A stretch of DNA of 54,679 nucleotides, from the NCBI GenBank assembly GCA_047621545.1, contig JBLHMA010000001.1, forward strand, positions 1 through 54,679, read 5' to 3'. Source of the stretch: Cognaticolwellia sp. Lineage in GTDB: Bacteria; Myxococcota_A; UBA796; CAJQPC01. Both the position numbers and the translations under genes were made by a program. Of this stretch, positions 5,123 to 48,556 are shown piece by piece. Numbering within the stretch: position 1 is the stretch's first letter; every line of letters begins with the position of its first letter. The notes under the pieces were generated by a model that had not been told where the DNA came from, did not search any database, and saw only the letters and a list, made by a program, of their open reading frames with translations.

Positions 5123-6078
5123 AAGCCATGCAGTTCCCTCGCTATGGCGGTCCAGAAGTCCTGACACTGAACGACGTGCCCGACCCAGTCCCAGGGGCCG
5201 GTCAGCTCCTGGTGCGCATGCAGGCCAGCTCGGTGAACCCCGTCGACTGGAAGCTGGCCAGCGGCGCGCTTCGATTCCTGATGCGGATCAAGCGTCCGGC
5301 AACCCCTGGCTTTGACCTAGTGGGCGAGGTGCTGCAGCTCGGCGCCGGCGTGACGACCTTCAAAGTCGGTCAACAGGTGGTCGCGCGCATTCCGAACACC
5401 CCAGGCGGCGCGGCGGCTGAAAAGGCGCTGGTCCCTGCAGAAGACTGCGTGCTGCTCCCTGCGGGGGTCTCGACTACGGACGCCGCCGCAGTGCCATTGG
5501 CCGGCATGACGGCCTTGCAAGCCCTGCACAACGACTGCGGGATGAAGCTCCAGGGCGAGACCAAGCGGGTTCTCATCGTGGGCGGGAGCGGCGGTGTGGG
5601 CCACTACGCCGTTCAGATCGCCCACAACGCGGGTGCCCACGTCACGGCCGTCTGCAGCGGCAAACGAGCCGAGGTTGTACGCGGACTAGGAGCCGATGTG
5701 GTCATCGACTACCGCGAGCAGGACCACTTCCGCACCGACGCCCCCTACGACATCATCCTCGACTGCGCAGCAAAGGCCCCCTGGGCGAGCTTTGAGGAGG
5801 TGCTCACCGAGACCGGGGTCCTCTCTCAGATCACCCTGGATCCGGGCTGGATTCCACGTATCGCCTGGACCAACCTGAGTTCCAAGAAGAAGATCAAGCC
5901 CACCATGCTCAAGCCAAACGCCAAAGACCTGTCCATCCTGCTGGGCTGGATGCAGCAGGGCAAGCTGAAGAGCTTGGTGGGTGCCAGCTTTCCCTTCACT
6001 GAGCTGGCCGACGCTTGGCGACTGAACGAGAAGGGTGGGACCCTGGGTAAGATCGGAATCACCTACCCGGAATCTTAG
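5119..6078 (+). CDS. Medium-chain dehydrogenase/reductase, NADPH:quinone oxidoreductase-like
   Basis: Zeta-crystallin-type layout: SSVNPVDWK, a PGFDLVGEV substrate domain, and the Rossmann motif VLIVGGSGGVGHYAVQIA. Confidence 0.85.
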   Translation: MKAMQFPRYGGPEVLTLNDVPDPVPGAGQLLVRMQASSVNPVDWKLASGALRFLMRIKRPATPGFDLVGEVLQLGAGVTTFKVGQQVVARIPNTPGGAAAEKALVPAEDCVLLPAGVSTTDAAAVPLAGMTALQALHNDCGMKLQGETKRVLIVGGSGGVGHYAVQIAHNAGAHVTAVCSGKRAEVVRGLGADVVIDYREQDHFRTDAPYDIILDCAAKAPWASFEEVLTETGVLSQITLDPGWIPRIAWTNLSSKKKIKPTMLKPNAKDLSILLGWMQQGKLKSLVGASFPFTELADAWRLNEKGGTLGKIGITYPES

Positions 6079-6191: not shown

Positions 6192-7700
6192 TCAATCACG
6201 ACGACGGAAGCTGGCCAACATCACGCCCGCTACGACCAACCAGCCCATCCAAGGGGCTGCTGGAGCGCTGGAGCAGCCAAAGCCGCCGCCACCCTTGAGG
6301 GTGCCGCCTGGGCGGGGAGGACGGTCGCCCAAGTCATCAGCTGGGTTGAGCAAGTCGGTACCGCGGTCGGCCTCTACACCGTCCGAGACGCCGCCATCGT
6401 CGGTGTCGGCCTTGTTGGGATCCGAGCCGTAGTTGTCGACCTCGTCACCGTCTAAGAGGGTGTCGTTGTCGGAGTCGTCGTCCCAGGGGTCGGTAAAGGT
6501 CTCGTCGACCTCGCGCCCGTCCAGCAGTCCATCATCGTCGGAGTCGGGATCGGTGGGGTTGGTCTCGGTCTCGTTGACCTCGCGTCCATCATCCAATCCA
6601 TCGTCGTCGGTGTCGGCATCCGTCGGGTCCGTGCCGTGGTTGAACACCTCGGGGCCGTCCTCCAAGCCGTCCTTGTCGGTGTCTGGATCGTTGGGGTCGC
6701 TGCCCCACTCCAGGACCTCTTCTCCGTCGTGCAACCCGTCGTCGTCGCTGTCCTTGTCCAGGGGATCGGTGTACCAGGTGTTCACCTCGGCCCCATCACC
6801 CAGGCCATCGCCGTCGGTGTCAAAGACGTAAGGATCGGTGCCGTAGATATCGACCTCGTCCCAGTCGCTCAGGCCGTCCCCGTCGGTGTCCCCGTAGTTG
6901 GGGCCGCAGATGCTCTCGCCTTGCGGGTCCAGCAGCGTGTAGGTCACCGAGTCTTGACTCAGGATGTAAAAGCCGAACTCACCGCCGACTGGCCAGGAGC
7001 CGAGCTCGTCGAACTCCAGCTGGCCGTCGATCCACACCCGGATGCGGGTCGAGTTGTAGTCCAACTCCACATTGTAGGTGCGGTCGTACTCCCAGCCGGT
7101 CTCGCCAAAGCGGTTGCCGGTAGCCACGACGCTGGCGCTGCCGGTCTGCTGCCAGAGATCGGTGTCCTTGGTCGCGCCCTGCACCCGCATCATGCTCAGG
7201 CCCATCGGGCACTCGCCCAGGCCGGTGGTGATCTGGTACTGCTTCTTCCAGGACCAAACCATCCAGTCCGCGCTGCTGTTCGTGGAATCGCCGGGGTGGT
7301 AGCCGACCAGGAACCCGATGATGTCGTCGTCCCAAGAGCTCGCCGCGGTCATCTCGAACTCAATGCTGCCGCTCTCTGCAGGCAGGTTGGTCAAGTACAC
7401 GCCAGGCGCCGCGTTCTCACTCTGCTCGACTGTGCGCGCGTCGGAGCTGATCGACCAAGAAGGGGCGCCGTCGTGCGAGTAGTCGGTGGGCAGGACCTCA
7501 TCGAACTGCAGGGAGAAGGTGCCGTCCACGCACTCCCAGCCGTCCTCGACCTGGCAAGAAGAGGAGCAGCCGTCCCCGCTGCTCTTGTTGCGGTCATCAC
7601 AGACCTCGCCCGAGTCCACTACGCCATCGCCGCATGCGGCATCCGCCGCGGAGAGAGAGAGCATTGCCAAGAGCATTTCGACCTTCCTTTTCGTCAACAA
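6192..7700 (-). CDS. Secreted mosaic protein: Cys-rich repeat, beta-sandwich-like domain, 8 thrombospondin type-3-like Ca-binding repeats, MYXO-CTERM tail
   Basis: N-terminal signal peptide, then CGDGVVDSGEVCDDRNKSSGDGCSSSCQVEDGWEC (myxobacterial Cys-rich repeat style). Eight DxDxDG(L)xDGxE units follow (DTDGDGLSDWDE ... DTDDGGVSDGVE). The C-terminus is GGFGCSSAPAAPWMGWLVVAGVMLASFRRRD. Confidence 0.8.
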   Translation of the reverse strand: MLTKRKVEMLLAMLSLSAADAACGDGVVDSGEVCDDRNKSSGDGCSSSCQVEDGWECVDGTFSLQFDEVLPTDYSHDGAPSWSISSDARTVEQSENAAPGVYLTNLPAESGSIEFEMTAASSWDDDIIGFLVGYHPGDSTNSSADWMVWSWKKQYQITTGLGECPMGLSMMRVQGATKDTDLWQQTGSASVVATGNRFGETGWEYDRTYNVELDYNSTRIRVWIDGQLEFDELGSWPVGGEFGFYILSQDSVTYTLLDPQGESICGPNYGDTDGDGLSDWDEVDIYGTDPYVFDTDGDGLGDGAEVNTWYTDPLDKDSDDDGLHDGEEVLEWGSDPNDPDTDKDGLEDGPEVFNHGTDPTDADTDDDGLDDGREVNETETNPTDPDSDDDGLLDGREVDETFTDPWDDDSDNDTLLDGDEVDNYGSDPNKADTDDGGVSDGVEADRGTDLLNPADDLGDRPPRPGGTLKGGGGFGCSSAPAAPWMGWLVVAGVMLASFRRRD

Positions 7701-7840: not shown

Positions 7841-8782
7841 ATGATCGAGGTCCAAAACCTCACCCGCTACTACGGCCGCCATGCTGCCGTCGCGGGCCTG
7901 TCCTTCAGCATCCAGAACAACGAGATCGTTGGTTTTCTGGGGCTAAACGGCGCTGGTAAGTCCACCACACTCAAAATCCTCGCGGGGCTGCTGTTGCCCA
8001 GCTCGGGAACGGTGACCGTAGACGGCGTGGATGTCGTCCAGGCCCCGGATTCCCTGCGTGCGCAGATCGGGTACCTGCCCGAGGATGCGCCTCTGTACCT
8101 GGACATGCGGGTCAGGGACTTTGTGGCCTATGTAGGCCAGCTCAAGGGGATGAGTAGCGATCAGGTGGACGCGCACATCGACGGCGTCCTGGAGCGCTGC
8201 GGTCTCAGCGATCGCTCCGACCAGGTGATCTCCGAGCTCTCCCACGGCTACCGGAAGCGGGTCGGGATTGCACAAGCGATCATCCACCAGCCCAAGCTCG
8301 TCATCCTCGACGAGCCCATCTCCGGCCTGGACCCCTTGCAGATCCGTGAGATCCGCGAGGTCATTGTGGGCCTGAAAGCCGACTGCACGGTCCTGATCTC
8401 CTCCCACATCTTGGGTGAGATCAGCCAGACCTGTGACCGCATCTTGGTGCTCAAGGACGGCAAGATGGCCGCCCAGGGCACCGAGGAGGAGCTCTCCAGT
8501 GGCCTGGGCCAGGGAGGACAGCTGGAGCTGAGCATTCGCGGTGCACAGGACGCTGTGGTGACGGCTCTGGAAGCCTACCCACACACGAGCGCCGTCACAC
8601 GGGTCCGAGTCGAGGACATTGACGGAGGCACTGTGGTGCACTGTCAGGTGGCCTTGGCCGCCGATGAGCGAGAAGGCTTGATCGCCGCTTTGGTGGCCGC
8701 TGGCCTGGGGCTGCGCCGAATGGACGAAGCCGACTCTGAGCTGGAAGCAATCTTCGTGAACCTCACGCAAGGGAAGAGCTGA
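7841..8782 (+). CDS. ABC transporter ATP-binding protein (ABC-2/GldA-like)
   Basis: Walker A GLNGAGKST, signature LSHGYRKR, Walker B LVILDEP. ATG 7841 (MIEVQNLTRYYG) is the typical N-terminus. The ORF is open from 7808. Confidence 0.9.
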   Translation: MIEVQNLTRYYGRHAAVAGLSFSIQNNEIVGFLGLNGAGKSTTLKILAGLLLPSSGTVTVDGVDVVQAPDSLRAQIGYLPEDAPLYLDMRVRDFVAYVGQLKGMSSDQVDAHIDGVLERCGLSDRSDQVISELSHGYRKRVGIAQAIIHQPKLVILDEPISGLDPLQIREIREVIVGLKADCTVLISSHILGEISQTCDRILVLKDGKMAAQGTEEELSSGLGQGGQLELSIRGAQDAVVTALEAYPHTSAVTRVRVEDIDGGTVVHCQVALAADEREGLIAALVAAGLGLRRMDEADSELEAIFVNLTQGKS

Positions 8783-9507: not shown

Positions 9508-11402
9508 GTCCCATCGGAATCCTTCAGCTGGGCAGCTTTGCCCTGATCTTTGTGGGCCAGCGCCTGCTCACCGACACCACTGGAATGGTCATCACTCTGG
9601 TGGGCGTGGTCGGTCTGCTGGCCGCTGTCGCCATGCGGGTCTCGGCCCGCACCAAGGCCGAGCACAAGAGCACCGCTGCGGCCCACTCCAAGGCGCTGAT
9701 CCTTCAGATCTTAGGCTTGGTCGCTGTGGCTGTGTACGGACTGAGCACCGATGCCTGCATCGACGCTCTGGGCCTGGAAGATGAGATGGCCAACCGCTGG
9801 GAGGTGGTGTTCTACGCACTCTGGCCCGTGCTCACACTGGCCTCGACCGTGCCCCTGCTGCTCGTCGATGCCGCGATTCAAGACAGCCCCCTGGCGGTAC
9901 AGCCACTGCGGGTGCGTCACGCCATAGACAATGGCGTGGTCGTCGCCCTGGGAATCAGCCTTCTCTTTCCCATCAACTACCTAGCCAGCCAGACCAACGA
10001 GCGCTTTGACTACGCCTACTTCAAGACGACCGAAGTGGGCGGCTCCAGTCGGGCCATTGTTGAGAACCTGAACGAGCCGGTGACCGCGCGCATCTTCTTG
10101 CCCACCTCCTCGGATGTGGCCGCAGAGCTGATGCCCTATTTTGAGGACCTGGCGTCTGCGAACCCCGGGATGTTCAAGGTGGAGTTGGTGGATCACGCCG
10201 CTGTGCCCGCTCTGGCCGAGTCTCTGAAGATTCGGGACAACGGCTACATCGCACTGACGATTCGCGACGGCGAGGACAACGCCCAGACCAAGAGCTGGAA
10301 GGTGGGCGATGACCTGGACAAGGCCAAGCGCAACCTGAAGAAGCTGGACCAAGAGTTCCAGAAGCGCATGCTGGACTTGGCCAAGGACGATCGCGTGGCC
10401 TACTTCACAGTGGGGCACGAAGAACTGAACTGGAAGGGCGGCGATTTCCCCGAAGACAAGCTGACCCAGCTCAAGCAGGGCATGCAGAAGCTGAACTTCA
10501 AGGTCAAGGAGCTGGGCCTGTCCCAGGGCCTGGGCGACAGCATCCCCGACGACGCCAGCGTGGTTGTGGTGATGGCCCCCAAAATGGCCTTTTTGCCCGC
10601 CGAGGTCCAAGCGATTCAGGACTACTTGGCCCGTGGTGGCTCGGTCATCCTGGCCGTTGAGCCTGGCACCCAGGAAGAGAACGCGGCGCTGCTGTCCCTG
10701 GTGGGCGCTGAGCTTGGCGAGGGCATCCTGACCAGCGAGGTGAACTACCTGGCCAAGGACAAGAACCTGGCCGACCGCTACAACGTGGTGACCAACCGAT
10801 ACAGCAGCCACGCATCCACGGTGACCCTGGGCAAGTACAGCCGCCAGCTGCAGCTCATCACCCCTCGGGCCGGCTGGCTCAAGGAGACCACACCGGTCAT
10901 CGTGGGCACCAAGACCACCGTCACGGTGCGCAGCCTGCAGGACAACTTCGCTGACCTCAATGGCAACCTGGAGTTGGACAAGAAGACTGAGAAGAAGGAA
11001 GTGCGCCCCATCGCGATGGTGGCCACCGGTCCCGCTCCGATGGCGCCCAACCCCGACGACCTCCCGCAGCTGGACGAGGCCTCTGAGGCTGACGCTGATC
11101 CGCCCGAGTTCCGCGTGGTCATCGTCGCAGACAGCACCTTGTTCTCGGATCTGGCCCTGGCCAGCCAAGGCAACCAGGTCTTCGTCTCCGATGCCCTGAA
11201 CTGGCTCTTGGGTGACGAGGCACTGGCCGGCACCACCGAGTCCGAAGAGGACGTGAAGATCGAGCACACGAAGGAGGACCAGACCCTCTGGTTCTACGGC
11301 ACCTCTTTAGGCGTGCCCCTCATCGTGTTGCTGCTGGGTCTGTTGCGGGTTCGCCGCCGCAAGCGCTCTACCCCTGACCTGCGCACCGGAGATTCCGCAT
11401 GA
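9498..11402 (+). CDS. GldG-like ABC-transporter auxiliary protein with N-terminal multi-TM extension
   Basis: 634 aa. N-terminal TM helices, a large soluble domain, and a C-terminal TM followed by an RRRKR anchor (LWFYGTSLGVPLIVLLLGLLRVRRRKR), as in the ABC-type uncharacterized transport system / GldG family. It overlaps the permease stop. GTG 9504 is an alternative start, 5 nt after GGAGG. Confidence 0.7.
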   Translation: MEVSPIGILQLGSFALIFVGQRLLTDTTGMVITLVGVVGLLAAVAMRVSARTKAEHKSTAAAHSKALILQILGLVAVAVYGLSTDACIDALGLEDEMANRWEVVFYALWPVLTLASTVPLLLVDAAIQDSPLAVQPLRVRHAIDNGVVVALGISLLFPINYLASQTNERFDYAYFKTTEVGGSSRAIVENLNEPVTARIFLPTSSDVAAELMPYFEDLASANPGMFKVELVDHAAVPALAESLKIRDNGYIALTIRDGEDNAQTKSWKVGDDLDKAKRNLKKLDQEFQKRMLDLAKDDRVAYFTVGHEELNWKGGDFPEDKLTQLKQGMQKLNFKVKELGLSQGLGDSIPDDASVVVVMAPKMAFLPAEVQAIQDYLARGGSVILAVEPGTQEENAALLSLVGAELGEGILTSEVNYLAKDKNLADRYNVVTNRYSSHASTVTLGKYSRQLQLITPRAGWLKETTPVIVGTKTTVTVRSLQDNFADLNGNLELDKKTEKKEVRPIAMVATGPAPMAPNPDDLPQLDEASEADADPPEFRVVIVADSTLFSDLALASQGNQVFVSDALNWLLGDEALAGTTESEEDVKIEHTKEDQTLWFYGTSLGVPLIVLLLGLLRVRRRKRSTPDLRTGDSA

Positions 11403-12466
11403 GCAAGCAAGTAATCATCCTGGCTGGCCTGTTGGGCGTGGGCATGGTGGCCTCGTACATGAGCTGGACCTCCGAGGATCCCACCGCCGACACCGAAGGC
11501 GTGGTGGTCATCGACGCCAAGCCCGAGCAGATCGAGAGCATCGCTTGGACCAGCGAGACGATGGACGTGGAGCTCAGCCGCCGCAGCGACGCTGTGGGCG
11601 ACTACATCTGGGTCAAGACCATCGAGCGCATCGAGAAAGAGATCCCTGCCGAGGTGACCGTCTCGCCTCTTGATCCTGATGCCCCAGCGCCGGCGGATGG
11701 TGAAGAGCCCGCCGAACCCAGCGAACCCGAGATGCGCATCGAAACGGAGACCGTGCATCGCGACTTTAAGGCCGGCGACACAGCTCAAGAGTTGATCGAG
11801 AGCTTTGCGCCCCTGATGGCCTCCCGTCGCCTGGAAGTTGCCCCCGACAAGTACGTCGATTTTGGTCTGGACACTCCGCAAGCCACGTTGGTCATCACCC
11901 GCAGCGGCAAAGAGCCACGCGAGCTGAGCATCGGCGGCGAGGCCTACGGCACCCGGGACCGCTACGCACTGGATGCGGACAAAAACAACGTGGTCCTGTT
12001 GGACTCCGATCTGCTGCGTCCCCTCAAGTTCGCAATCAGCCGCTTGCCCGACCGCGACTTGCTCACGGTGGAGACCCCGAAGCTAACGAAGGTCACTGTT
12101 AGTTCGCCGAACCGCGAGCCCGTGAACTTGGACCAGCTCAACGCTGCAGACCCCCAAAAGGCCACCTGGGCCTACCTCGGCGAGACCGAGGGCGATGAGT
12201 CCGCAGCAGCCTGGATGAACAAGGCCCTGAGTCTCAAGGCAAAGGCCTATGTTCAGGCAGAAGAGATGCCAACGAGCACCACCACCGAGCTGACTCTGGT
12301 CTACATGGCCGAGGACGGCAGCCAGCATCAGGTCGAGGTCATTCAGGGCACGGATGCCCAGGGCGAGACCCAGTGGTACGGGCGCTCGACCAACACCCGA
12401 GAGTTGGTGACCTTGCACGCAGCACAAGCCAGCGAGTTGGTCGCCGATTTGGATGCGCTACCCTAG
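11399..12466 (+). CDS. DUF4340-like protein (usual partner of GldG-type genes)
   Basis: ATGA overlap with the upstream gene (11399..11402). It has an N-terminal TM anchor (IILAGLLGVGMVASYM). The size and position after a GldG-like gene match the usual DUF4340 arrangement. The assignment rests on context, not on a motif. Confidence 0.5.
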   Translation: MSKQVIILAGLLGVGMVASYMSWTSEDPTADTEGVVVIDAKPEQIESIAWTSETMDVELSRRSDAVGDYIWVKTIERIEKEIPAEVTVSPLDPDAPAPADGEEPAEPSEPEMRIETETVHRDFKAGDTAQELIESFAPLMASRRLEVAPDKYVDFGLDTPQATLVITRSGKEPRELSIGGEAYGTRDRYALDADKNNVVLLDSDLLRPLKFAISRLPDRDLLTVETPKLTKVTVSSPNREPVNLDQLNAADPQKATWAYLGETEGDESAAAWMNKALSLKAKAYVQAEEMPTSTTTELTLVYMAEDGSQHQVEVIQGTDAQGETQWYGRSTNTRELVTLHAAQASELVADLDALP

Positions 12467-13225: not shown

Positions 13226-13894
13226 ATGCTCTTTGCTTTGATCTTTGCTTGCGCAGGCCGACAGGCGACCGACAACGCCGACAACGCCGAAGACACTCCG
13301 GTCGAGAACGATGCGGACACCGATGCAGACAGCGACAGCGACACGGACGCGGACTCCGATGCGGACAGCGACGCCGACGCCGACAGTGACTCCGACAGTG
13401 ACTCCGACACCGACACCGACATCTCCGCCCCTTGGGAGGGACTGAGCGCCGATCCGAACTGCGAGGAGGTGACCGGCCAGGCCGTGCCAGGCGCCACCAG
13501 CTATTTCTGGGGTGACTTCAACATCACTGGCGACATCGTCAAAGGCGACGAGGGCTGGACGCTGCTCTCCAACCAGGCTTGGCGCGACGAGGGCGGCTCG
13601 GACTGCGTGGTCGTGTGGAGCGCTGCGGGCGGCAAAGCTTCCCCCAGCAGCGCCTGTCCGACCTGCGACTACAGCTTTGGCCTGTTCATGTCTATCGACG
13701 AGAGCCAGACCACCTGTCCAGAGGGCCTATACAGTGGCGACGAGAGCTTCGCGATTACCTACAACATCGCGGTCGACGGCCGGACCACCGACTACAGCTT
13801 TGCCAGCAGCGGCGACGCCTTGGGCGTCGGAGAGACCGACGGAACGCGCAGCACCTACCTGGCCGAGTCGACCTGCAAGTACTTCGGTCGCTAG
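13226..13894 (+). CDS. Lipoprotein with acidic D-[STA] repeat linker and Cys-containing C-terminal domain
   Basis: MLFALIFACAG has a lipobox. A 37-residue (D-x)n tract is encoded at 13310..13420. It is followed by a ~150-aa domain with 6 Cys. No family recognised. Confidence 0.65.
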   Translation: MLFALIFACAGRQATDNADNAEDTPVENDADTDADSDSDTDADSDADSDADADSDSDSDSDTDTDISAPWEGLSADPNCEEVTGQAVPGATSYFWGDFNITGDIVKGDEGWTLLSNQAWRDEGGSDCVVVWSAAGGKASPSSACPTCDYSFGLFMSIDESQTTCPEGLYSGDESFAITYNIAVDGRTTDYSFASSGDALGVGETDGTRSTYLAESTCKYFGR

Positions 13895-15546: not shown

Positions 15547-15564
15547 GGGGTGTCCAATACCGGT

Positions 15565-15799
15565 GCCTTAGGGCGCAGCCCAACGGACTCGAAGAGTCCC
15601 TCTCCCCGGAAACGCCCCAAGCCAGCCCCAACGACCGGGGAGGGCCGCAAGCCACCGACCCGGTCTCCAGAACGCCCCCCGGTATCCGGCAGCAGGCCTT
15701 AGGGCGCAGCCCAACGGACTCGAAGAGTCCCTCTCCCCGGAAACGCCCCAAGCCAGCCCCGACGACCGGGGAGGGCCGCAAGCCACCGACCCGGTCTCC
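15565..15799. repeat. Two direct copies of a 104-bp element (15565..15668 and 15696..15799), period 131 bp
   Basis: By hand alignment the copies differ at one position (ccccAacgacc versus ccccGacgacc). Each contains the hairpin GGACTC-GAA-GAGTCC and a CCGGG...CCCGG stem. The region is non-coding. The ORF track shows the same peptide twice only because of the repeat. Confidence 0.9.
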
Positions 15800-15882
15800 C
15801 AGCGCGGAGCAAGTGGCCCATCGGGCTGTATGGACGACTCCAAAACGAAGCGCGCTGCGTAAGGCTTTGGAGAGTCCGTGCA

Positions 15883-16008
15883 GGTTCGCATAGCGAACCC
15901 ACCCAGGAAAGGGGGACCCGCAACGCGGGGGGAAACCTGGGTTTCCCTATCGCAGGGGGTGCAGTGTTGCCGGCAGGCAACCTCGCAAGGGGGGCCGCGC
16001 AGCCCCCC
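15883..16008. other. Cluster of six short GC-rich stem-loops in non-coding DNA (REP-like or structured RNA candidate)
   Basis: The stem-loops are:
- GGTTCGC-ATA-GCGAACC (15883..15899)
- CCCGC-AAC-GCGGG (15917..15929)
- GGGAAAC-CTGG-GTTTCCC (15930..15947)
- GTTGCC-GGCA-GGCAAC (15966..15981)
- CCTC-GCAA-GGGG (15981..15992)
- GGGGGGC-CGCGCA-GCCCCCC (15989..16008). Confidence 0.6.
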
Positions 16009-16009
16009 T

Positions 16010-16226
16010 CAGAAACATAGCGGCCGGAGGCGCGACAGAAACACAGCGGCGAAGGCCGCTCGTCGGCGCCGGAGGCGCGACAGAAACACAGCGGCGAAGG
16101 CCGCTCGTCGGCGCCGGGGGCGCGACAGAAACACAGCGGCGAAGGCCGCTCGTCGGCGCCGGAGGCGCGACAGAAACACAGCGGCGAAGGCCGCTCGTCG
16201 GCGCCGGAGGCGCGACAGAAACACAG
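16010..16226. repeat. Tandem repeat: 45-bp unit x4 plus truncated units at both ends
   Basis: The unit is cgcgacagaaacacagcggcgaaggccgctcgtcggcgccggagg, found at 16031, 16076, 16121 and 16166. I count one substitution among the four copies. A partial unit lies at 16211..16226 and a 19-nt-deleted unit at 16010..16030. Each unit carries the hairpin GCGGC-GAAG-GCCGC. There are no unique spacers. Confidence 0.95.
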
Positions 16227-16550
16227 AAAAACCCCCGCCCGGAACAATCCCAAGCGAGGGCTTTTTGAGTCAACGCGCTCTTTGGGAACCCGTCTCCAGG
16301 TTCAGCGGGCACCGAATCGCTGCCGACACCGGGGAATTCCGATGCCGGTACCCAAGGCCTCTCTTCCTTGGGACCCAAAGTCCATGCTGACATTCACCCT
16401 GGTCTTAGCAATACCTGTGCCAACATCAAGGAAGCCCACGGCATCGGGATCTTGTATGGAAACGCTGAGGAAAATGTGTCGCAGTTGGGAGATCCGGGTC
16501 CCGGGCTCAAGGGTACCGGAGAAGGATCCGACAACCAGCTTGGAGGAATC

Positions 16551-22222: not shown

Positions 22223-23074
22223 ATGCCCGAACAGACCGGCTCCGAACTCCACAGCATCAGCATCGGCGACGGCCCCAAGCTCGCCTTGGTCCTGCACGGC
22301 ATCCTGGGCTCCGGCCGCAACTGGATGAGCTTCGCAAAGTCGATGGTGCAGGCCTGCCCAGAGTGGCGCTTTGAGCTGATGGACCTGCGGGCCCATGGGC
22401 GCTCACCCACCTTCACCCCGCCCCATACAGTGGGGGCCTGCGCAGGGGACCTGAAACGCTTCGTCACCGCGCTGAAAGTTCAGGCCGGCCAAGACGCACA
22501 CCCCAGCGCAATCATCGGCCACTCCTTTGGTGGCAAGGTCGCCCTATCCTACGGGCGCGACTTCTCCGAGGGCCTTGAGCAGGTGTGGGTGCTGGACAGC
22601 CCGCCGAGCAACCAGGCCTCGGATGTGGATGACAGCGAGGTCGTGCAGGTGATTCGTGCTCTCCGCAGCATTCGACTGCCCTTGGCCAAGCGGGACGAAC
22701 TCATCCCACTCCTGGCAGCACACGGCCTAAGCAAGAGCTTGGCGTTGTGGATGACCACCAACCTGAAGCGCGAGGGCAAAGGTCTGGTCTGGCGCTTTGA
22801 CCTGGACGCGGTAGCCGAGCTCATCGGCGACTACTTTGAGCAGGACTTTTGGCCCCTGCTGCAGCGCCCCCCCAGCGGGCCCACCTGGCACATCCTGCAA
22901 GCCGATCGCTCCGAGCGGTGGCGACCTGAAGACGCCCAGCGCATCGCCCAGCTACCCGCTTGGAATCCGGTGCACCACCACACCCTGGCCGACAGCGGCC
23001 ACTGGGTGCATGTGGACAACCCCAAGGGCCTGGAAGCGCTGATGCTCCCTTGGCTCTCCGGGGAGCGTTCCTAA
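22223..23074 (+). CDS. Alpha/beta-fold esterase (YbfF-like)
   Basis: LVLHGILGSGRNW, nucleophile elbow IGHSFGG, and a C-terminal DSGHWVH. Confidence 0.8.
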   Translation: MPEQTGSELHSISIGDGPKLALVLHGILGSGRNWMSFAKSMVQACPEWRFELMDLRAHGRSPTFTPPHTVGACAGDLKRFVTALKVQAGQDAHPSAIIGHSFGGKVALSYGRDFSEGLEQVWVLDSPPSNQASDVDDSEVVQVIRALRSIRLPLAKRDELIPLLAAHGLSKSLALWMTTNLKREGKGLVWRFDLDAVAELIGDYFEQDFWPLLQRPPSGPTWHILQADRSERWRPEDAQRIAQLPAWNPVHHHTLADSGHWVHVDNPKGLEALMLPWLSGERS

Positions 23075-23180
23075 GGGAGAAGTTAGCCGGTTGCCCGCTG
23101 CCGGAAGACCACCGTCCTCCCAGAACAGCCAGGTGACGTAGGCCGGCCACAACCATGATTAAGACCTGGATCCCGAGCAA

Positions 23181-23344
23181 TACACCCTCGGTCAGGCAAG
23201 ATGGTCCGCGGGAGGCGCCAGCGGAGTGCGACTCCGCAAGGCACGAGAACGAAGGAGTCCGCGAGCATTTCGAGGACGAAGAACGCAGCGGAGGCGAGAG
23301 AGAGCAAGCCTCGCATGTGGTCAGTCTGCCTGATCGAGGGTGTA
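23181..23344 (-). mobile_element. MITE copy A (164 bp including TA/TA flanks), inverted relative to copy C
   Basis: Terminal inverted repeats TAcaccctcg(a/g)tcaggca... and ...tgcctgatcgagggtgTA. The reverse complement aligns with 52972..53135 without indels and with 14 mismatches (hand count). It is intergenic. Confidence 0.85.
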
Positions 23345-23487
23345 AGTAGCCTGAGCGCCGCTCGGTTGGATCGTCGCGAGAGTCCACAGGAACGCACCGA
23401 TCGACGAGAGCCAAGAAGCGCATGTCAGCGTGGGGCGGGGTCTTCTCAGCCACCCATTACGGCAGTTCTACCAGGGCCTTTAGCCCA

Positions 23488-26115
23488 TCAGGGGGTTGCG
23501 CTGTAGCCGGGATCAGGCTCAGCCACAGTGGCCTCTTCCGTCGTGGCTCCTGAGGTGCCTTGGATCTGGGAGTTCAGCTCGTTGTAGTCGAGTCGGATCC
23601 TACCCTCTCCTCCATCTCCCCCGAGCCGAATGTGGGTGGACTCTCCAAATCCGCCTTCGGCCGAGACCGCCCCCGAGGCCAGGGTGAGCACATCCGCAAT
23701 CAGCCAGACGCTGCCACCTGCGCCGCCGCCTGCACCATAAGTGTAGCTGCCGGTGGACCAGTGAGGCGTGGTTCCGCCAACTGCCGTGATGCCGTCCGCA
23801 CCCTGTGCGTCGATCTCAAAGGCTGCGATGATGACCATTCCCGCGCCGTCGCCCCCGGGACCAGGGTTGCCGCTGCCCACCCAGACACCGCCTCCGCCAG
23901 AGCCAAAGAAGAGGCTGCTCAGGTCCGTGGCGCCGTAGGTGTCTCCGCCGTAGGGCGCCGTAGCGCTGCCGCCGGTCCAGGAGTCGCCATCTGTGGCTCC
24001 GCCGGCGTACTCGCCACCGCCGCCGGTGATGTGGGCGCCGCCGCCGCCATAGTTGTTGACCCAGTGCCCGTAGCTCTCGTTGTACGCGGTGCAGGCGCCG
24101 TCGCCGTCGCCGTCGCCTTCCCCGGCGTAGGACTCACCCTGAAAGGCATCACAGTTCGACGCGCTGCCTGTGGCCCCGCCGGCGTAGCCCAGCTCGGAGA
24201 CTTGGATTGCGCCGCCACTCTCGACCGTGACCGTTCCGGTCGCCCGGAACGCCAGCACGCCACCGGTGGACCCGTCCCAGACATCCACACTCAAGGTGCC
24301 GGCACTGGTGATGTCCACATCGGTGTACTGGGGGACCCGTTGAACCAGCACGGTCTGGTCGGTCAGATCGGCGTTGCTGCTGTCTCCGAAGGTCACTGAG
24401 GGCGTGCTGCTCAAGGTCACATCGGCACCCGAGACACTGGCGACCTCGACAAACTCGTAGTTGCCCACGTTGGTGTAGGCCGAATCCGAACCGTGCAGGT
24501 TGATGACCAGCAACTCATCGCCAGCCGCGATGCCATCGGCCGTTCCGTCGAGGGTCAGAACAGCACCCGAGATGCTGTCCACGTTGTAGCCAACCGCGTC
24601 CCCGTAGCTTCGCGAGCCGCTTGGGTCGGTGCTCAGGTTGGTGGAGCCGCTGACGCTCAGGGCGCCGTCGCCGCCGGAGCCCACCCAGGTGTTGTCGTCC
24701 ACCGTCCCGTCGCAGTCGTTGTCCACGCCGTCCAGGAGCTCGCGGGCGCCGGGGTAGGCCTCGGCGTCGGTGTCATCGCAGTCCGTGTCGTCGGCCACGT
24801 AGCCAGTGGGTTGATCGCACTCGACATCGCTGACGCTGGCGTCGCCATACGTGTCCGCGTCGGCATCGGCGTACCAAGTGCTGGCGTCCAGGGCGGTGTC
24901 CTCGTCGACGGCGCCATCGCAGTTGTCGTCCACCGTGTTGCAGTACTCGTCGGCGCCGGGGTTGATGCTCGCCTCGGAGTCATCACAATCGCTGCTGTCG
25001 CTGGTGTAGCCAGAAGGCGCGGAGCAGGCCGAGGTGGTGAAACTGGTGCCGCCATATCCGTCGGAGTCAAAGTCCAGGTAGAAGGTGGAGCCGTCGGTCA
25101 GCCCGGGGTCCCCATCGTCGATGTAGCCGTTGCAGTCGTTGTCGACGGTATCGCAGACCTCGGATGCAGCAGGGTTCACAGCCGAGTCGGAGTCATCACA
25201 GTCCTGGGCGTTGCCGACGTAGCCAGAGGGCGCCTCGCAGGCGGCCGAAGACGTGCTCGAGTCCCCATAGCCGTCGCTGTCTGCGTCCAAGTAAAAGTCG
25301 GCGGCGTCCACAGCAGTGTCGTTGTCGATGGTGCCGTCGCAGTCGTTGTCCACGCCGTCACAGATTTCGGTCCCGTCTGGAGAGACGGACGCATCGGCGT
25401 CGTCGCAGTCGCCCGACCTGTCCTCGTACCCGAGGGGAGGCTCGCAGGCGTCCAGAGTGGAATCTCCGCCCCAGCCATCGCCGTCACTGTCAGCGTAGAA
25501 GAGCTCCGTGACCCCCTCGTCTATCTGGCCATCACAGTTGTTGTCCGTTTCATCGCAGACCTCTTCCGCGGCGGGGTTGGTGCTGGCGACCAGGTCGTCA
25601 CAGTCGGTGTCGTCGACCACCCAGCCTGGTCCCGGATCGCACTCGTCCAGAGTGCTGCTGGCGTTGCCGTAGGTGTCCCCGTCCACGTCGGCGTACCAGA
25701 GCGTGTTCAGGTCGTTGTCGACCACGCCATCGCAGTCGTTGTCCACATCATCACAGCGCTCTGGCGCGCCCGGGAAGCTCTCGGCGTCCAGGTCATCGCA
25801 GTCCCCACCGACCGCTGCATACAGGGCGCCAGGGCTCTCGCAGGAGCGCAGATCGGTCCCGTCCAAGCCTGCGCCGTCGCCGTCCTTGTCTTCGTACCAG
25901 GCCGACGCGTCGGTGGCATCGGCGTCGATCACGCCATCGCAGTTGTTGTCCACGCCATCGCAGATCTCTTCTGCGCCCGGGTAGATCGCCGCATCGTCTG
26001 GGGCGCAGTCTTCGTCGTCGGGGATACCATCGGCGTCTTGGTCGGTGACCAGAGAGCCGGTGTCCACTGCAACATCTTTGGTTCTACAGGCGAGTGAGAG
26101 CAAGAGCAGGAACAT
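23488..26115 (-). CDS. MopE-like lipoprotein: 7 'putative metal-binding motif' repeats plus Gly-rich beta-helix-like C-terminal domain
   Basis: MFLLLLSLACRT has a lipobox. Seven units of DCDDxDxxxxPGAxExCDGxDNDCDGxxD alternate with DxDGDGYG-like segments. The C-terminal region is rich in GGGG / GxG. Confidence 0.85.
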   Translation of the reverse strand: MFLLLLSLACRTKDVAVDTGSLVTDQDADGIPDDEDCAPDDAAIYPGAEEICDGVDNNCDGVIDADATDASAWYEDKDGDGAGLDGTDLRSCESPGALYAAVGGDCDDLDAESFPGAPERCDDVDNDCDGVVDNDLNTLWYADVDGDTYGNASSTLDECDPGPGWVVDDTDCDDLVASTNPAAEEVCDETDNNCDGQIDEGVTELFYADSDGDGWGGDSTLDACEPPLGYEDRSGDCDDADASVSPDGTEICDGVDNDCDGTIDNDTAVDAADFYLDADSDGYGDSSTSSAACEAPSGYVGNAQDCDDSDSAVNPAASEVCDTVDNDCNGYIDDGDPGLTDGSTFYLDFDSDGYGGTSFTTSACSAPSGYTSDSSDCDDSEASINPGADEYCNTVDDNCDGAVDEDTALDASTWYADADADTYGDASVSDVECDQPTGYVADDTDCDDTDAEAYPGARELLDGVDNDCDGTVDDNTWVGSGGDGALSVSGSTNLSTDPSGSRSYGDAVGYNVDSISGAVLTLDGTADGIAAGDELLVINLHGSDSAYTNVGNYEFVEVASVSGADVTLSSTPSVTFGDSSNADLTDQTVLVQRVPQYTDVDITSAGTLSVDVWDGSTGGVLAFRATGTVTVESGGAIQVSELGYAGGATGSASNCDAFQGESYAGEGDGDGDGACTAYNESYGHWVNNYGGGGAHITGGGGEYAGGATDGDSWTGGSATAPYGGDTYGATDLSSLFFGSGGGGVWVGSGNPGPGGDGAGMVIIAAFEIDAQGADGITAVGGTTPHWSTGSYTYGAGGGAGGSVWLIADVLTLASGAVSAEGGFGESTHIRLGGDGGEGRIRLDYNELNSQIQGTSGATTEEATVAEPDPGYSATP

Positions 26116-39635: not shown

Positions 39636-39720
39636 GTCGAGGGTGAACCAGGGTCTGAGCTGCACTCAGGCCTTCTGGCGATCCATCCAACGCAGCACCG
39701 CTGGGTACGCATCTACCCTT

Positions 39721-39805
39721 TACACCCTCGATCAGGCAGACTGACCACATGCGAGGCTTGCGCTCGCACGCCTCCCACGGATCATCTTGCCTGACCGAGG
39801 GCGTA
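39721..39805 (+). mobile_element. MITE copy B: 85-bp internal-deletion derivative
   Basis: It has the same termini and TA flanks as copies A and C. The central 79 bp are missing, exactly between two CGCCTCC direct repeats present in copy C. The right end abuts the K5 stop codon (39806..39808). Confidence 0.85.
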
Positions 39806-42800
39806 TCAGCCGTGCGCGATACTCGCGCACACAGCCATGAGACGCTTACCGTCCTCGCGGCCCAAGTTGGCCGACAAGGTGCGGGCCAAGGCCCGAGAGA
39901 CCCGCCCATGCATGGAGACGCTGGCATCTTCCTCGGAGAAGCGGGCCAACAGGCAGTGGGACTTGAGGGCGTAGAAACGGAAACCACAGGTCTCCGCTTG
40001 GCTCAGCGCCTCCTTGGCGCGCTTGTTCGCCTCGAAGAGCAGTCCGCTGGCTCCAAGCGCCCACGCTGCAATGAGATCCAAGCGAATGCGCTGGTGCGGC
40101 CAGGGCCTACCCACATTGGCGTAGGCCAACTCGACTGCAGCGAGCACCTGCTCCGAGGGAGCACCACGCTCGGCCAAGAGGCGGCCACGCCAGGCCCGAA
40201 CCAGAGGACCGAAGCCCTCCAAGTCGTAGCGGCCCAGAAGCTCTTCGACCCGCACCAGCTCGCGTTCCACCTCGTCCAGGCGACGCTCGCGCAGCGCGAT
40301 ACGAACCAGAGTGATGCGCACGGCCAGTTCGTCATCGTGCCGGTGTAGCCGTTCGCTGAGCATCAGGGCTTCCGCCGCGGACTCACGGGCATCTGCCAGG
40401 CGCTCCAGATCCACCAAGACCAGGGCACGGTACTGCAGGCCGATGGCCACGCCGTTCTGGTAGCGGGTCTCCCGAGCCTGGGAGATGGTGCGATCGGCCA
40501 GCTGCATGGCCCGGCGCAGGTTGCCCGTGCAGTGACACAGCTCCACCAGGTTTACCCGGGCCACCATCAAAGGCCCCAGCTTGCCCAAGCGAGAAAAGGT
40601 CTCTACCGACTGCTCCAGGTATTTCCTGGACTCTGCCGCTTGACCCTTGCACAGGGCAACCAGCCCCAGGCCGGTGTAGCCCTGGGCCAATGCCTCGTCG
40701 TCATGCACCGCGCCCGCCGCGCTCAGAGCCTCCAGCCAGTGCTGCCGGGCCCCGTCCAGGTCCCCCCGGTTCCAGCGCACTGACGCCATGCCGTGCAGGG
40801 GGGCGACCTGCAGAGTGGTGTCCCCCAAGCGGCGCGCCATGGACAAGGCCTCGGTGTAGCGGTCCTCGGCGGTGTCCAGATCTACGTCCCGGCGGGCGGC
40901 GGAGCCCAGAGCTGCCAGAGTGCGTGTGCGTAGGCGCTCATCGCCGATGGCCAAGGCCAGCTCGTCGGCCTGATACTGGTCCAGATCCGCCTCTTCACTG
41001 CGCCCAAGATGCTCCATGGCCTGTCCACGGCGCAGCAGCAGCGTTGCCAGCGCCCTGTCGGCGTCCTCCAAGGTCATGTACTCGCGGGCGTCGGGCTCCA
41101 CGGCCAGGGCCCGGTCGTAGAAGACCTCGGCCTCCCCCACAAAGCTGCGGTCCTGAAGACGGATGCCCGCACGTAGCAGGTAGGGGTAGGCCTTGGCGGG
41201 CAGCTCTCCCTGCTCGAAGTGCCATGCAATGGCCTCGACGACGGTGGAGATCCGGTGCCTGTACAGACGCTCCAACGTGGCCCCAAGCCGGCGGTGCAGT
41301 TGCCGCCGCAGTTGATCGGGCATCCCCTCCAGCAAAATGTCCTGCAGCCTAGGCCTGGCCAGCTCGTAGAGCTCATCCATGCCGCCTAAACGCGCCCGAA
41401 TAAGACCGTGGTCCAGAAGCGCTTCAAGCTCCAGGAGGAGCTCAGTCTCGGTGGTGCGCAGGGCTTCGAGTAGGGCGTCTAAGGTGAGTTCTTGCCCGGA
41501 GACGGCCAAGACACGAGCCACCGCAAGCGAGGACGGACTGAGCTTGGTCAGCCGCGCACGCAGAGCGTCCCGAATGCTGGCCGGGATGGGCAACCGGGCC
41601 TGGGCAACCAGCGCCGTATCCAGCTCCAATCTATAGCCAGTCTCGGCTGGCTGAATGACCCCCTGGGCCACCAAACCGCGAATCATCTCGGCGATAAAGT
41701 GCGGGTTTCCCTCGCCTTCTCGATGCAGGCGAGTCGCAAGGGTGCGGGAGCGCTCATCGTCTGGAATGAGCTGAAGCAGCATCTCCTCGACCGCGGAGAT
41801 CGAGATGGGCTGCAGGGAGAGCACCCGAGGCGCGATGCCACTGGCCGTGTCCTCGAACAGCCCAGCCAGGGGGTCCAGCACCTCGCCTGCCTTTCGACCC
41901 AAGACGAAGAGGATGGGGTCGCTGGAGAGGTGCAGGTGGTTGCGGAGCAAGAACTCCAGCATCGCCACCGCGCCCCGACGGGCCCGGTGAACCTCGTCCA
42001 AGATGATGACCAGCGGCATGTGCTCCCGCAAGAGATCGCGGGTGGCCGTGAGAAGCTGGTAGCGCTCCAAGGTGCCCTGGGCCTGACCGAAGGCCACATC
42101 CAGAGGAGCGGGCAAGACCGTCAGCTTTAGGTCTGCGAGGATGCCGTCAAACCCACCGAACTCGTGGTCGTCGCGCCCACAGCGGCCCGCGAGAACACGA
42201 AGACCCAAGCTTTCGGCACGCTCCTGCACGACCCGCAGCAGCGCGCTCTTTCCAAAGCCGGGGGCGCCCTCCACCACGATGGAGCCACCGCGGCCATTCT
42301 GGAGTTGGGAGAGCGCCTCACGCAGCTGGGCGAGCTCAGAGACCCGGCCAACCAAGCGAACGGGAAAGCGCTTTAGATCGACCGCCGCACGCTGGTGCTG
42401 ATCTAAGACCGAGAGCAGGTGCCTTGCGCTACCGTAGCGGGCCACCGGGTCCTTCTCAAGCAGCCGCATGCACACCCCGTCCAAGTGAGCGGGCACCGTG
42501 GGGCTCACTTCTCGTGGAGACCGCGGTACTTGATGCAGGTGCTTGTCCAATAAGCTCGCCACCGAGTTGGCCTGAAAGGGCCTCCGGCCGGTCAGCATGT
42601 AGTAGAAAACCGCGCCCAGCGAATACAGGTCTGCCCGCGCGTCGACCCGGCCGTTGCCAATCTCTGCGGAGATCTGTTCCGGGGAGATCCAGGCCACCGT
42701 ACCGACCATCTCACCGACGGTGGTCAGCTCTGCGCCAGGCATATGCACCACACCAAAGTCCATCAACACCGCTCGACCACTGGCGTTGACGCGAATGTTA

Positions 42801-44545: not shown

Positions 44546-45493
44546 GCCCAGGGCCCACCAGCCCGAGGGGCTGCCCTGACTGCAGCCACCACACTCCGCA
44601 GCCTGGCCACCGTCGCGGTCCCCGCCAGTGTCCGCGTCCGTCTCTTCCAGCACGCCGGAGTCAGAGTCCGCGTCGGTGTCCGTGTCTGTATCGCTGTCCG
44701 AGTACGCGTCCGTGTCGCTGTCCCCTTCCAGCTCAAACTCCACGTGCTCCTCCAGGAACTCCAGCTCGCGGTCGATGCGAACCGCAGCCGCGCCCGGCTT
44801 GCCTGAGTCACAGTCAATTGCTCCTTCATCCATGTCGAAGACAAAGGTGTTCACCCCGACCAGCTCCCAGCTGTCGGTGTCCGGATCCTTCCACATCGCG
44901 GCCCCACCAGAGTCTCCGCTACACACGTTCTTGGATTCCCCGTCCGCGTAGGTGTAGACAAAGTTGTTGTCAGAGAAGTAGATGGGGACATTGACCTTTC
45001 GGCGAGTGCCGCCACTGTCGGCCTTGTCTGAGTCGGTCAACCCGTAGCCCACGTAGGTGAGGTTTTCTCCCACGTCGCTCGTGACCAAAGCCTGGGTGTT
45101 CAGAGACATGGTCCCAAAGTCTTGGATGCCCGACTCCAGGTAGAGCACAGCGATGTCGTGATGGGCGGTCTGCGCACTGTAGTCCGGATGCGCGTACATG
45201 GACTTGATCTCAGCCGAGGCCTCCCAAGAGTCCGCGATCTGGTCGGCCACCACAAAGTACAAGGTGTATCCGGCCCCCTGGTACCCCTCTGCAGCCTCTA
45301 CGCAGTGGGCTGCCGTGATCACACGACGGGCAGCAACCAAGGTCCCGCTGCAGAAGCTGCCCGCGAAACCACCTTTCTCCGCCACAAAGGCGCCCACCTG
45401 CTTGTAGGGGTGGCCGCTGACCTGGCTGCCACCAACGATTGGAGGAGGGGTCACGGCGAAAGCCACGGACAGAAACGGGGTGATCAGAAGCAT
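44507..45493 (-). CDS. Secreted trypsin-like (S1) serine protease with acidic linker and MYXO-CTERM tail
   Basis: PPPIVGGS, ITAAHC, HDIAVLYL, CSGDSGGA. The linker is DSDTDAYSDSDTDTDTDADSDSG. The tail is CGGCSQGSPSGWWALGLVGLLGLRRRRS. Confidence 0.9.
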   Translation of the reverse strand: MLLITPFLSVAFAVTPPPIVGGSQVSGHPYKQVGAFVAEKGGFAGSFCSGTLVAARRVITAAHCVEAAEGYQGAGYTLYFVVADQIADSWEASAEIKSMYAHPDYSAQTAHHDIAVLYLESGIQDFGTMSLNTQALVTSDVGENLTYVGYGLTDSDKADSGGTRRKVNVPIYFSDNNFVYTYADGESKNVCSGDSGGAAMWKDPDTDSWELVGVNTFVFDMDEGAIDCDSGKPGAAAVRIDRELEFLEEHVEFELEGDSDTDAYSDSDTDTDTDADSDSGVLEETDADTGGDRDGGQAAECGGCSQGSPSGWWALGLVGLLGLRRRRS

Positions 45494-45542: not shown

Positions 45543-46547
45543 CTAAGCGCGGCGCCGGCGAAGCAGCAATAGGCCGAAGGCGCCCACCAAGCCCAACCAT
45601 CCAGCCGGGCCAGGCTGAGCGGAACAACCCAACAGACCGCCGCTTTCTTCACGGCTAAACGTCGGACGCGGGGGGCCTGCCGTGTCACCTGTCTCCCAGT
45701 TGGGATCGCTGTCTGCATCCGAATCGGAGTCGGAGTCGGAGTCGGCGTCCGAGTCGGTGTCGGAGTCCGAGTCGGCATCGGTGTCTGCGTCCAGGTCGCC
45801 AGCCGGCACGTAGTCGGTGATGAAGCTCCACTGGCTGTCGGTCCGGGAGGAGCCTGCTGCAGCGCCCTGGCGGTCACAGTCAGGCTGGCCCCCATTCTTG
45901 TTGTAGCCAAAGGAGTTGGCGCCGACTAGCTTTTGGGTGCCACCCAGGGTCATCAGTGCTGCGCCACCTGAATCACCGGAGCAGATGTTCTGAATGGTGC
46001 CCGAGTTCCCGCTGTAGGTGTAGATGATGGTGGAAGCGTAGCCATCGTAAGGCACGTCCACCGTACGCTTTACACCACCGTCATTCCGGTCATCGGAGGT
46101 GATCCCAAAACCGACATAGGTCACGTCCTTGGTGCTCCAAGAGCTGGCCGGGGACGAGCGGTTCACCGGCATTGGCGTGATGGACGTGATGCTCGTCTTG
46201 AGCTCCAACAGGCCCAGGTCGTGCTCCAGGGTGCTCGTGTTGTAGCTGGGGTGAGCGATGGCCCGCTTGACCTCGGCGTAATCCTGCCAAGAACTCTCGT
46301 TGTACACGTCGCTGGCAAACACGAAGTACACGTCCCAGCCTGCGTCCCAGTATTCATCGGCGGCCTCTACACAGTGGGCCGCGGTGATGACCCACTTTTG
46401 GGTGACCAGCGTTCCCGAGCAGAAGCTGCCGCCCGAGCTTCCCGCGATGGCCACCATGGATCCCACAGCAGGAAAACTGCTGGTGGTGCTGCCGTTGACT
46501 ATCGGCGGCGGCGTGTTGGCTAGAGCAAGGGACGTAAGCAGAAGCAT
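45543..46547 (-). CDS. Secreted trypsin-like (S1) serine protease with acidic linker and MYXO-CTERM tail
   Basis: PPPIVNGS, ITAAHC, HDLGLLEL, CSGDSGGA. The linker is DADTDADSDSDTDSDADSDSDSDSDADSD. The tail is GCSAQPGPAGWLGLVGAFGLLLLRRRRA. Confidence 0.9.
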   Translation of the reverse strand: MLLLTSLALANTPPPIVNGSTTSSFPAVGSMVAIAGSSGGSFCSGTLVTQKWVITAAHCVEAADEYWDAGWDVYFVFASDVYNESSWQDYAEVKRAIAHPSYNTSTLEHDLGLLELKTSITSITPMPVNRSSPASSWSTKDVTYVGFGITSDDRNDGGVKRTVDVPYDGYASTIIYTYSGNSGTIQNICSGDSGGAALMTLGGTQKLVGANSFGYNKNGGQPDCDRQGAAAGSSRTDSQWSFITDYVPAGDLDADTDADSDSDTDSDADSDSDSDSDADSDPNWETGDTAGPPRPTFSREESGGLLGCSAQPGPAGWLGLVGAFGLLLLRRRRA

Positions 46548-47545: not shown

Positions 47546-48556
47546 TCAACGGCGGCGGCGTACCATCAGCAATCCTGCGACCAGGGCCAATCCCAACCAA
47601 CCGGCACCTTGTACGGGCGCGCTGGAGCACCCCCCTGCGGCGCTGAGACTATCAGATCCTACCGGAGAGGTAGGCCGCTCATCGCTGTCATCGGCCACCA
47701 CATCGGTGTCGGTGTCGGAGTCGGTGTCAGAGTCCGAGTCGGAGTCCGCATCGGTGTCGGTGTCGGTGTCGGTGTCAGAGTCCGCGTCGGTGTCCGCATC
47801 GCCGTCGGCGAGCTCCACATAATCGGAGATCCAGTCAATGTGCGTGTCGACGCGAGTCGCACCGGCATAGCCCAGGCAGGGGTCGCTGTTGACGCCGTCC
47901 CCATCCACAAAGCTGTTCACGCCCGCCAAGACCAGCTCGCCGCTGACCTTCAAGAGCGCCGCACCGCCCGAATCGCCCGAGCAGACGTTCTTCGGGTTGC
48001 TCGGGTCACCGTGGTAGGCGTAGATAAAGCGGTCATCGGCACCGTTGAAAGGAACATCAACCGTGCGCCGAACCCCAGAGCTTCCGTCGTTGACGCCGTA
48101 GCCACCGCTCACACCGTAGCCGACGTAGGTCACGTCTTTGCTGGTCCAACCGTCCTTGGGGGCCACCGTGTTGGCCAGGTAGATTCCCTGATCTGGCAGG
48201 GGCTCGGAGAGCTCCATCAGCCCAATGTCGTGGTCTAGGTTGTTGGCGTTGTACCCGGGGTGCGGGATCAGGTCGATGGCCTGAGCGTAGGTGTCGATGC
48301 TCGACCAGCTGTCTCCAATGATGAAGAAGGTCGCCAGACCGTAGTCGTCTTCGTATTGCTGGGCCGCCTCCAAGCAGTGTGCGGCCGTGAGCACCCAGCT
48401 AGCTTCGATCAAGGTGCCGGAGCAAAAATCGAAGGTGGTGTTGCCGCCATCGGACATGGCCAGCATGCCCACCTGGATGTGGTCCGAGGTCGGAGCACCG
48501 CCAACGATGGGGGGTGCCTCTTGTGCAAAGGACACAGCGCTCATAAGCCACAGCAT
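47546..48556 (-). CDS. Secreted trypsin-like (S1) serine protease with acidic linker and MYXO-CTERM tail
   Basis: ATG 48556 gives MLWLMSAVSFAQEAPPIVGG. The ORF is open to 48622. LTAAHC, HDIGLMEL, CSGDSGGA. There is a long D-[STA] linker. The tail is GGCSSAPVQGAGWLGLALVAGLLMVRRRR. Confidence 0.9.
   Translation of the reverse strand: MLWLMSAVSFAQEAPPIVGGAPTSDHIQVGMLAMSDGGNTTFDFCSGTLIEASWVLTAAHCLEAAQQYEDDYGLATFFIIGDSWSSIDTYAQAIDLIPHPGYNANNLDHDIGLMELSEPLPDQGIYLANTVAPKDGWTSKDVTYVGYGVSGGYGVNDGSSGVRRTVDVPFNGADDRFIYAYHGDPSNPKNVCSGDSGGAALLKVSGELVLAGVNSFVDGDGVNSDPCLGYAGATRVDTHIDWISDYVELADGDADTDADSDTDTDTDTDADSDSDSDTDSDTDTDVVADDSDERPTSPVGSDSLSAAGGCSSAPVQGAGWLGLALVAGLLMVRRRR

Follow-up and report, generated by a model that had tools for sequence, protein, structure and literature searches.

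A previously undescribed TA-duplicating MITE family in uncultured marine Myxococcota-like bacteria

The Correia elements (CREE/NEMIS) of Neisseria are about 100-155 bp long, carry terminal inverted repeats (TIRs) of about 26 bp, make a TA duplication, form RNA hairpins and occur as full-length and internally deleted size classes, and we know of no transposase for them. The repeat unit of pneumococcus (RUP) makes a TA target duplication. For the Rickettsia palindromic elements (RPEs), to our knowledge there is no clear evidence of TIRs together with a TSD. Correia elements are listed among the MITEs (PMC3184786, PMC10969869), and the 107-bp RUP has been proposed, from its ends, to be moved in trans by IS630-Spn1 (PMC3049150). 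RPEs are palindromic repeats of about 150 bp that often lie in frame within genes, to which they add a peptide (PMC10969869). ISY100 inserts at TA with duplication, and its transposase binds the ends of the element and suffices for a gene-less mini-element (PMC2170065).

The element described here is a real, mobile and previously undescribed MITE family with TA duplication. It resembles RUP, by description, in being a small non-coding element with TIRs in a bacterial genome. RUP, however, is an AT-rich, high-copy element of a Firmicute with a known candidate partner IS, whereas the present element has a G+C content of 64%, is rare, occurs in uncultured marine Myxococcota-like hosts and has no partner found. 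The likeness to the Correia elements extends to size, TIRs, TA duplication, deleted forms, hairpin folding and the lack of a transposase, but those elements are confined to Neisseria, where they number in the hundreds, and they contain IHF sites and promoters, features not found here. Like the RPEs, the element enters genes in frame (2 of about ten sites, each an insertion of 54 codons), although RPEs belong to obligate intracellular Rickettsia and are known from dozens of intragenic sites; here there are two, and at one of these the host gene is decaying. ISY100 and other IS630 elements share with it an almost exclusive insertion at TA and duplication of that TA (PMC2170065), but they are autonomous, about 1 kb long and encode a DDE transposase, whereas this element has no gene and no matching IS was found.

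The window analyzed is an entire metagenome contig of 54,679 bp (62-70% G+C). Its genes encode several Ser/Thr kinases with AAA-TPR tails, MopE and TSP3 repeat proteins and trypsins, and the nearest named homologs belong to a 'Myxococcota bacterium' MAG (66%) and to Enhygromyxa salina (56%), both of Myxococcota. On this ground the source is probably an uncultured marine representative of the phylum. The preliminary description reported three copies in this window, in ranges that include the flanking TAs. Reading of the sequence and alignment gave exactly these three. Full-length copy A occupies 23181-23344 on the minus strand (TA, 160-bp core at 23183-23342, TA), copy B is an internal deletion form at 39721-39805 on the plus strand (81-bp core, 39723-39803) and full-length copy C lies at 52972-53135 on the plus strand (160-bp core, 52974-53133). 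Copy A is flanked by two convergent genes whose 3' ends face it, one for an alpha/beta hydrolase (22223-23074, plus strand) and one for a MopE-repeat protein (23488-26115, minus strand). Copy B is found between a RegA-type response regulator gene and the stop codon of a Ser/Thr kinase gene (1146 aa, minus strand), with its right TA abutting the TGA stop (39806-39808). Copy C is inside the ORF of a YHYH-domain lipoprotein gene (52466-53587, plus strand), where it supplies codons 170-223, in frame and without stops.

Alignment of copies A and C gave 14 mismatches in 160 nt and no indels, the same figure as the earlier hand count, and an independent repeat search of the window recovered this pair (164 nt at 91%). 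A 17-nt terminal motif occurs seven times in the window against 1.03 expected, and none of 100 shuffles gave at least seven occurrences. The occurrence at 29136 was rejected, being a chance match within coding sequence. An nhmmer profile built from five copies detected no further copies in the whole window at E ≤ 1.

The termini read CACCCTCGATCAGGCAGA... and ...TCTTGCCTGACCGAGGGTG, with TA on both sides of all three window copies. The outer TIR sequence is CACCCTCGRTCAGGCA. In copy C the left TIR is 52974-52997 (plus strand, CACCCTCGATCAGGCAGACTGACC) and the right TIR is 53110-53133 (minus strand, reverse complement CACCCTCGGTCAGGCAAGATGATC). The left 24 nt are the same in all three window copies, and the termini are conserved in all copies of the family. 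The two ends match at 15 of the 16 and at 19 of the 24 outermost positions, in agreement with the imperfect inverted repeats first proposed. The internal 7-bp hairpin that had been called conserved is perfect in copy A (GCGGAGT-GCG-ACTCCGC, 23221-23237, plus strand) and keeps its pairing in copy C despite one substitution (GTGGAGT-CGC-ACTCCGC, 53079-53095; a G-U pair is still possible on that strand), whereas it is deleted from copy B. In the copy at locus L012 a G-C pair replaces the closing T-A pair. Copy B consists of element positions 1-53 joined to 133-160. The 79 nt that are missing (positions 54-132) have the direct repeat CGCCTCC at their borders (positions 47-53 and 126-132). A short form from another lineage (L014) has a different junction, indicating that deletion derivatives arise independently.

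Mobility was examined by comparison of occupied and empty sites. At site C the orthologous contigs L015 (82% nt identity) and L016 (89%) align with the window on either side and lack exactly 162 nt, that is, the 160-bp core plus one TA. The occupied site reads ...ACCACCTA-TA-core-TA-CCTTGGAG..., whereas in the empty alleles, which share ACCACCTA, a single TA-equivalent site is found (...GACACCACCTA followed directly by CACC(C/T)TGGAG...). Removal of the core and one TA from the window restores ACC ACC TAT ACC TTG GAG. The single difference from the relatives is synonymous (TAT in the reconstructed target, TAC in the empty alleles), and one such substitution has to be assumed. All seven orthologous YHYH proteins lack the insert and read ...DTT(Y/F)TLEIPV....

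A second empty site was found in a related lineage. Protein P0126, a 291-aa lipoprotein present in eight contigs, contains the element in frame, whereas P0144 (237 aa), which falls in the same 90% cluster and differs by two substitutions, lacks exactly the 54 MITE-encoded residues and reads ...GALI joined to QVDG... at the insertion point. The occupied DNA reads CTGATA-core-TACAGG, and P0144, known as a protein alone, would fit an empty allele in which ATA is joined to CAG with a single TA (...CTGATACAGGTT...). P0158, a 59% homolog of P0126, also lacks these residues. The P0126/P0144 pair is a presence/absence polymorphism among near-identical strains, the kind of comparison that the preliminary description had called for.

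Over about ten distinct sites (three in the window and about seven in other contigs) TA flanks 14 of 16 intact ends, the exceptions being L018 (TT/TA) and one truncated copy with TG. The flank preference across sites is C-T-K-TA-T-C-A. Two independent empty sites differ from their occupied counterparts by 160 + 2 nt or 54 codons, the behavior expected if the TAs are target duplications as the preliminary description supposed, although sequence comparison reads identically for a duplicated TA and for a TA-bearing element inserted beside a TA. The element has moved, as shown by its different loci in related lineages and by two exact empty alleles, and the lineage-specific movement dates after the lineages split. 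The element is less than 400 bp long without a transposase gene, has TIRs, has a TSD seen at empty sites and occurs as dispersed non-orthologous copies, all as in a MITE, and it duplicates a TA target on insertion, as do MITEs of the IS630/Tc1-mariner type. REP/BIME sequences, which are RAYT-mobilized imperfect palindromes of 20-40 bp without TIRs plus a TSD, were considered and rejected, the element being 160 bp with TIRs and TA duplication. We consider it likely that this is a 160-bp non-coding DNA transposon with imperfect TIRs of about 24-35 bp that duplicates TA and would be mobilized in trans.

The search for the enzyme was made in the window and the fetched loci, together 350 kb. The six-frame translations of the element give only 54-residue peptides, into which a Pfam transposase domain could not fit. 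Among the best 25 of 29 Pfam families matched by window ORFs of at least 200 aa (down to E 3.6e-17) there was no transposase family, hence none of the IS630/Tc1-mariner type, consistent with the preliminary description, and none of the RAYT type (Y1 transposase). The genes tabulated for the fetched loci likewise included no transposase, and the window, the fetched flanks, plasmids and viral contigs yielded no autonomous element whose termini match. Two truncated copies (L001 and L003) were examined as possible ends of a longer autonomous element and rejected, since the ORFs beyond the shared end are not transposase-like. A cluster of fragments in contig L011 was likewise rejected as an IS, as the genes there are aroA, dnaG, rpoD and a zinc-ribbon gene with no transposase.

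Because no transposase with matching ends was found, it is the TA duplication alone that assigns the element to the IS630/Tc1-mariner type, and a 2-bp TA duplication is a hallmark of that superfamily but not unique to it. Of the assignment made at the outset, the duplication of TA on insertion stands, whereas the window and fetched loci gave no transposase to match. The link is plausible. The mobilizing enzyme might instead lie outside IS630/Tc1-mariner, for example in an IS5-family subgroup making 2-3 bp duplications, or be an unknown or extinct partner as for the Neisseria Correia elements, a proposal we rate as unlikely. Many Tc1/IS630 elements have CAG- or TACAG-type ends and the IS630 target preference is CTAG, whereas the present termini start with CACCC and the flank preference is the one given above; together with the lack of an IS630-type gene or matching IS ends in the 350 kb, these features favor such a partner. 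They are outweighed in our judgment by the strict TA duplication at nearly all sites, which is the IS630/Tc1-mariner signature (PMC2170065), and the search covered the 350 kb of the window and fetched loci.

In the favored mechanism a DDE transposase supplied in trans would cut out and paste the element, its N-terminal helix-turn-helix domain presumably binding the conserved 16-24 bp termini. Integration with a probable 2-nt stagger at TA would duplicate the TA, and the best candidate enzyme would belong to the IS630/Tc1-mariner family, of which TA duplication is the hallmark. Among the consequences observed, internally deleted forms arise between short direct repeats, and the surviving copies occupy dispensable DNA, namely gene remnants and intergenic regions between convergent 3' ends.

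The folding of the element raised the question of a structured RNA. Taken end to end, the element forms an extended imperfect palindrome (59 predicted pairs), and both strands fold as rods or a long hairpin. The strand starting CACCCTCGGTC gives -90.4 kcal/mol (z -9.3) and its complement -75.4 kcal/mol (z -6.0). The former folds better because several mismatches of the repeat become G-U pairs. This asymmetry is inherited by all copies and is no evidence of selection. Among five near-identical sequences, covariation amounted to a single compensatory pair in each of two places, the long stem and the small internal hairpin, which is not enough to support selection on the structure. A structured RNA gene or cis-regulatory hairpin (a small RNA, mRNA stabilizer or terminator) spread by recombination could account for the strong strand-unequal folding, for these two compensatory changes and for the position of copies A and B in the 3' regions of convergent genes. 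However, the insertions are precise to 162 nt with TA duplication even inside coding sequence, orientation relative to genes varies, and any palindromic MITE folds similarly. Moreover, Rfam gave no match at E ≤ 1 around copy A and none at gathering score across the whole window, and neither promoter-like nor terminator-like sites nor a T-run were found in or beside copies A and C. The structured-RNA reading is disfavored and we consider it highly improbable. No tRNAs were found in the window.

What chiefly sets this otherwise ordinary element apart is its in-frame insertion inside genes. The reading frame survives an insertion because 160 + 2 = 162 nt, or 54 codons. Both intragenic copies (copy C and that of P0126) are in frame and stop-free, using different frames. 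In P0126 the conserved C-terminus is kept and five 291-aa strain variants have no changes within the insert; this host gene looks intact. Stops are absent from four of the six frames in the window copies and from three in L012 and L018. Four or more open frames turned up in 1.4% of shuffles, a figure to be read with the caution that the frames of a palindrome are not independent. These findings would suit a translation-compatible module, in which a length of 3n and open frames were selected for persistence as a translated 54-residue insert, a counterpart in free-living marine Myxococcota of the RPEs (precedent in PMC10969869). We think this quite unlikely, as there are only two intragenic cases, the frames differ between them, the host gene in the window is decaying, the majority of copies lie outside genes and the lengths of the short forms are not divisible by 3. 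Such a role is in any case compatible with the MITE explanation and not a replacement for it.

The decay of the copy C host gene is seen in several features of its sequence. The Pfam YHYH match starts two residues past the MITE insert. The motif GYHYH has become GYYYY by five C-to-T changes within 12 nt (TATTATTATTAT), with loss of both histidines, and a premature in-frame TAG at 53429-53431 replaces a codon that is GAG (Glu) in all orthologs, with homology continuing in frame beyond it. The gene looks like a decaying pseudogene. The insert-free ortholog closest to the window, in contig L016 (Logan SRR20241786), has a 1-nt deletion that results in a frameshift (P0020, 249 aa), which is either a second independent inactivation of the YHYH gene or a unitig error.

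Gene loss was also found at sites A and B. At site B the window has 171 nt (39637-39807) where contig L027 has 1.87 kb (10521-12385) with 2OG-Fe(II) oxygenase and glutathione S-transferase (GST) genes. The window retains about 46 nt of the GST 3' end (39672-39717, minus strand), the rest of the gene being missing with copy B at the gap. The GST gene is intact in relatives, and in the closest relative (L044) it directly follows RegA (1831-2365). In the alignment with L027 the right TA of copy B falls on the first two letters of the stop codon TAG of the orthologous kinase gene, and the window kinase stops one codon earlier at TGA. At site A a gene for a 573-aa hybrid histidine kinase/response regulator lies between the hydrolase and MopE-repeat genes in L043, the closest ortholog contig (2795-4621), whereas the corresponding window interval is 438 nt (23054-23491) including copy A, with weak remnant matches (E 0.002-0.02). 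L043 was rejected as a simple empty site for copy A, as the full kinase gene fills the interval. Most simply, copies would persist where the DNA was already dispensable. The gene losses at sites A and B are placed beside the copies, an association of position that does not establish a causal role of the copies in the deletions.

The family is common to at least three related uncultured marine Myxococcota-like lineages, with different loci in each, and it is rare. A 19-base terminal pattern, searched for exactly in 185,579 species-representative genomes, was present in two of them, on two contigs each, and in metagenomes the pattern gave six loci plus three chance matches in coding DNA (L006, L010 and L013), which were rejected as copies. 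The four open-frame translations used as query recovered 7 protein clusters among 5.8 billion. Proteins P0121, P0123 and P0124 represent three copies in one NCBI/JGI MAG labelled 'Cognaticolwellia sp.' The L018 copy is 97.5% identical to copy C, and it recurs at one and the same locus in 13 marine metagenome contigs. Contig L027, syntenic with the window over 18 kb (82-83% nt identity), lacks the element at site B and throughout 20 kb, and the assembly that holds it carries copies at other loci (L040). Contig L011 comes from a third lineage (MAG CAJQPC01) and has three copies, degenerate or truncated (5890-5968, 7429-7484 and 8054-8181, the last being L001), within 2.3 kb downstream of rpoD and the zinc-ribbon gene, in a stretch without recognizable genes. 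Neither of the two outcomes that the preliminary description named as refuting was seen, since further copies are present in other contigs and lineages and the flanks behave as TA duplications at the empty sites. The high genomic load that it suggested is unsupported: no copies were found in about 30 kb of syntenic contigs from relatives (L027, L043, L044, L015 and L016), and the scan gave two contigs in each of two MAGs. Its view that the family is undescribed holds, as no matching Rfam family, plasmid record (blastn, E ≤ 0.01) or paper was found. A scan of a viral contig collection also gave no matches.

Our literature search for MITEs in myxobacteria gave nothing relevant, and the family is thus documented in a phylum where that search found none described. 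The documentation spans empty and occupied alleles, TA duplication, deletion derivatives and in-frame intragenic copies. Our understanding of MITEs is unchanged by it. The 16-24 bp termini provide a handle for finding the responsible transposase in uncultured marine Myxococcota, and P0126 with insert-free P0144, set against the decaying YHYH gene, makes a small natural test of in-frame MITE tolerance.

The element also breaks short-read assemblies and produces spurious or chimeric ORF calls in protein catalogues (P0002, P0121-P0126 and P0160). Logan contig L005 (SRR28416806), from the same organism, matches the window at 100% identity and stops 27 nt inside copy B (contig positions 2800-2826), as expected for a repeat, since such repeats break de Bruijn-graph assemblies. 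P0160 (175 aa) is a macro-domain-like protein with a called N-terminus that is MITE-derived. P0159 (63 aa) joins a PVISVDTKKKELIG transposase fragment, which we take to be of an ISAzo13-like transposase, to a truncated MITE-derived peptide, suggesting a MITE fragment inside another insertion sequence.

Other repeats were seen in the window. A repeat-rich intergenic region of about 820 bp (15547-16367), for which no Rfam match at gathering score was found, contains two tandem copies of a 131-bp unit (15565-15668 and 15696-15799, 99% identity) and 4.5 repeats of a 45-bp unit (16023-16226, 98%), in which every unit has a GCGGC-GAAG-GCCGC hairpin. Long Asp/Ser/Thr-rich coding repeats of the GAC/AGC/ACC type (13300-13420, 44610-44750, 45690-45820 and 47680-47840) are common to several genes for secreted and trypsin-like proteins on both strands and make up most of the other repeat families given by the repeat search.
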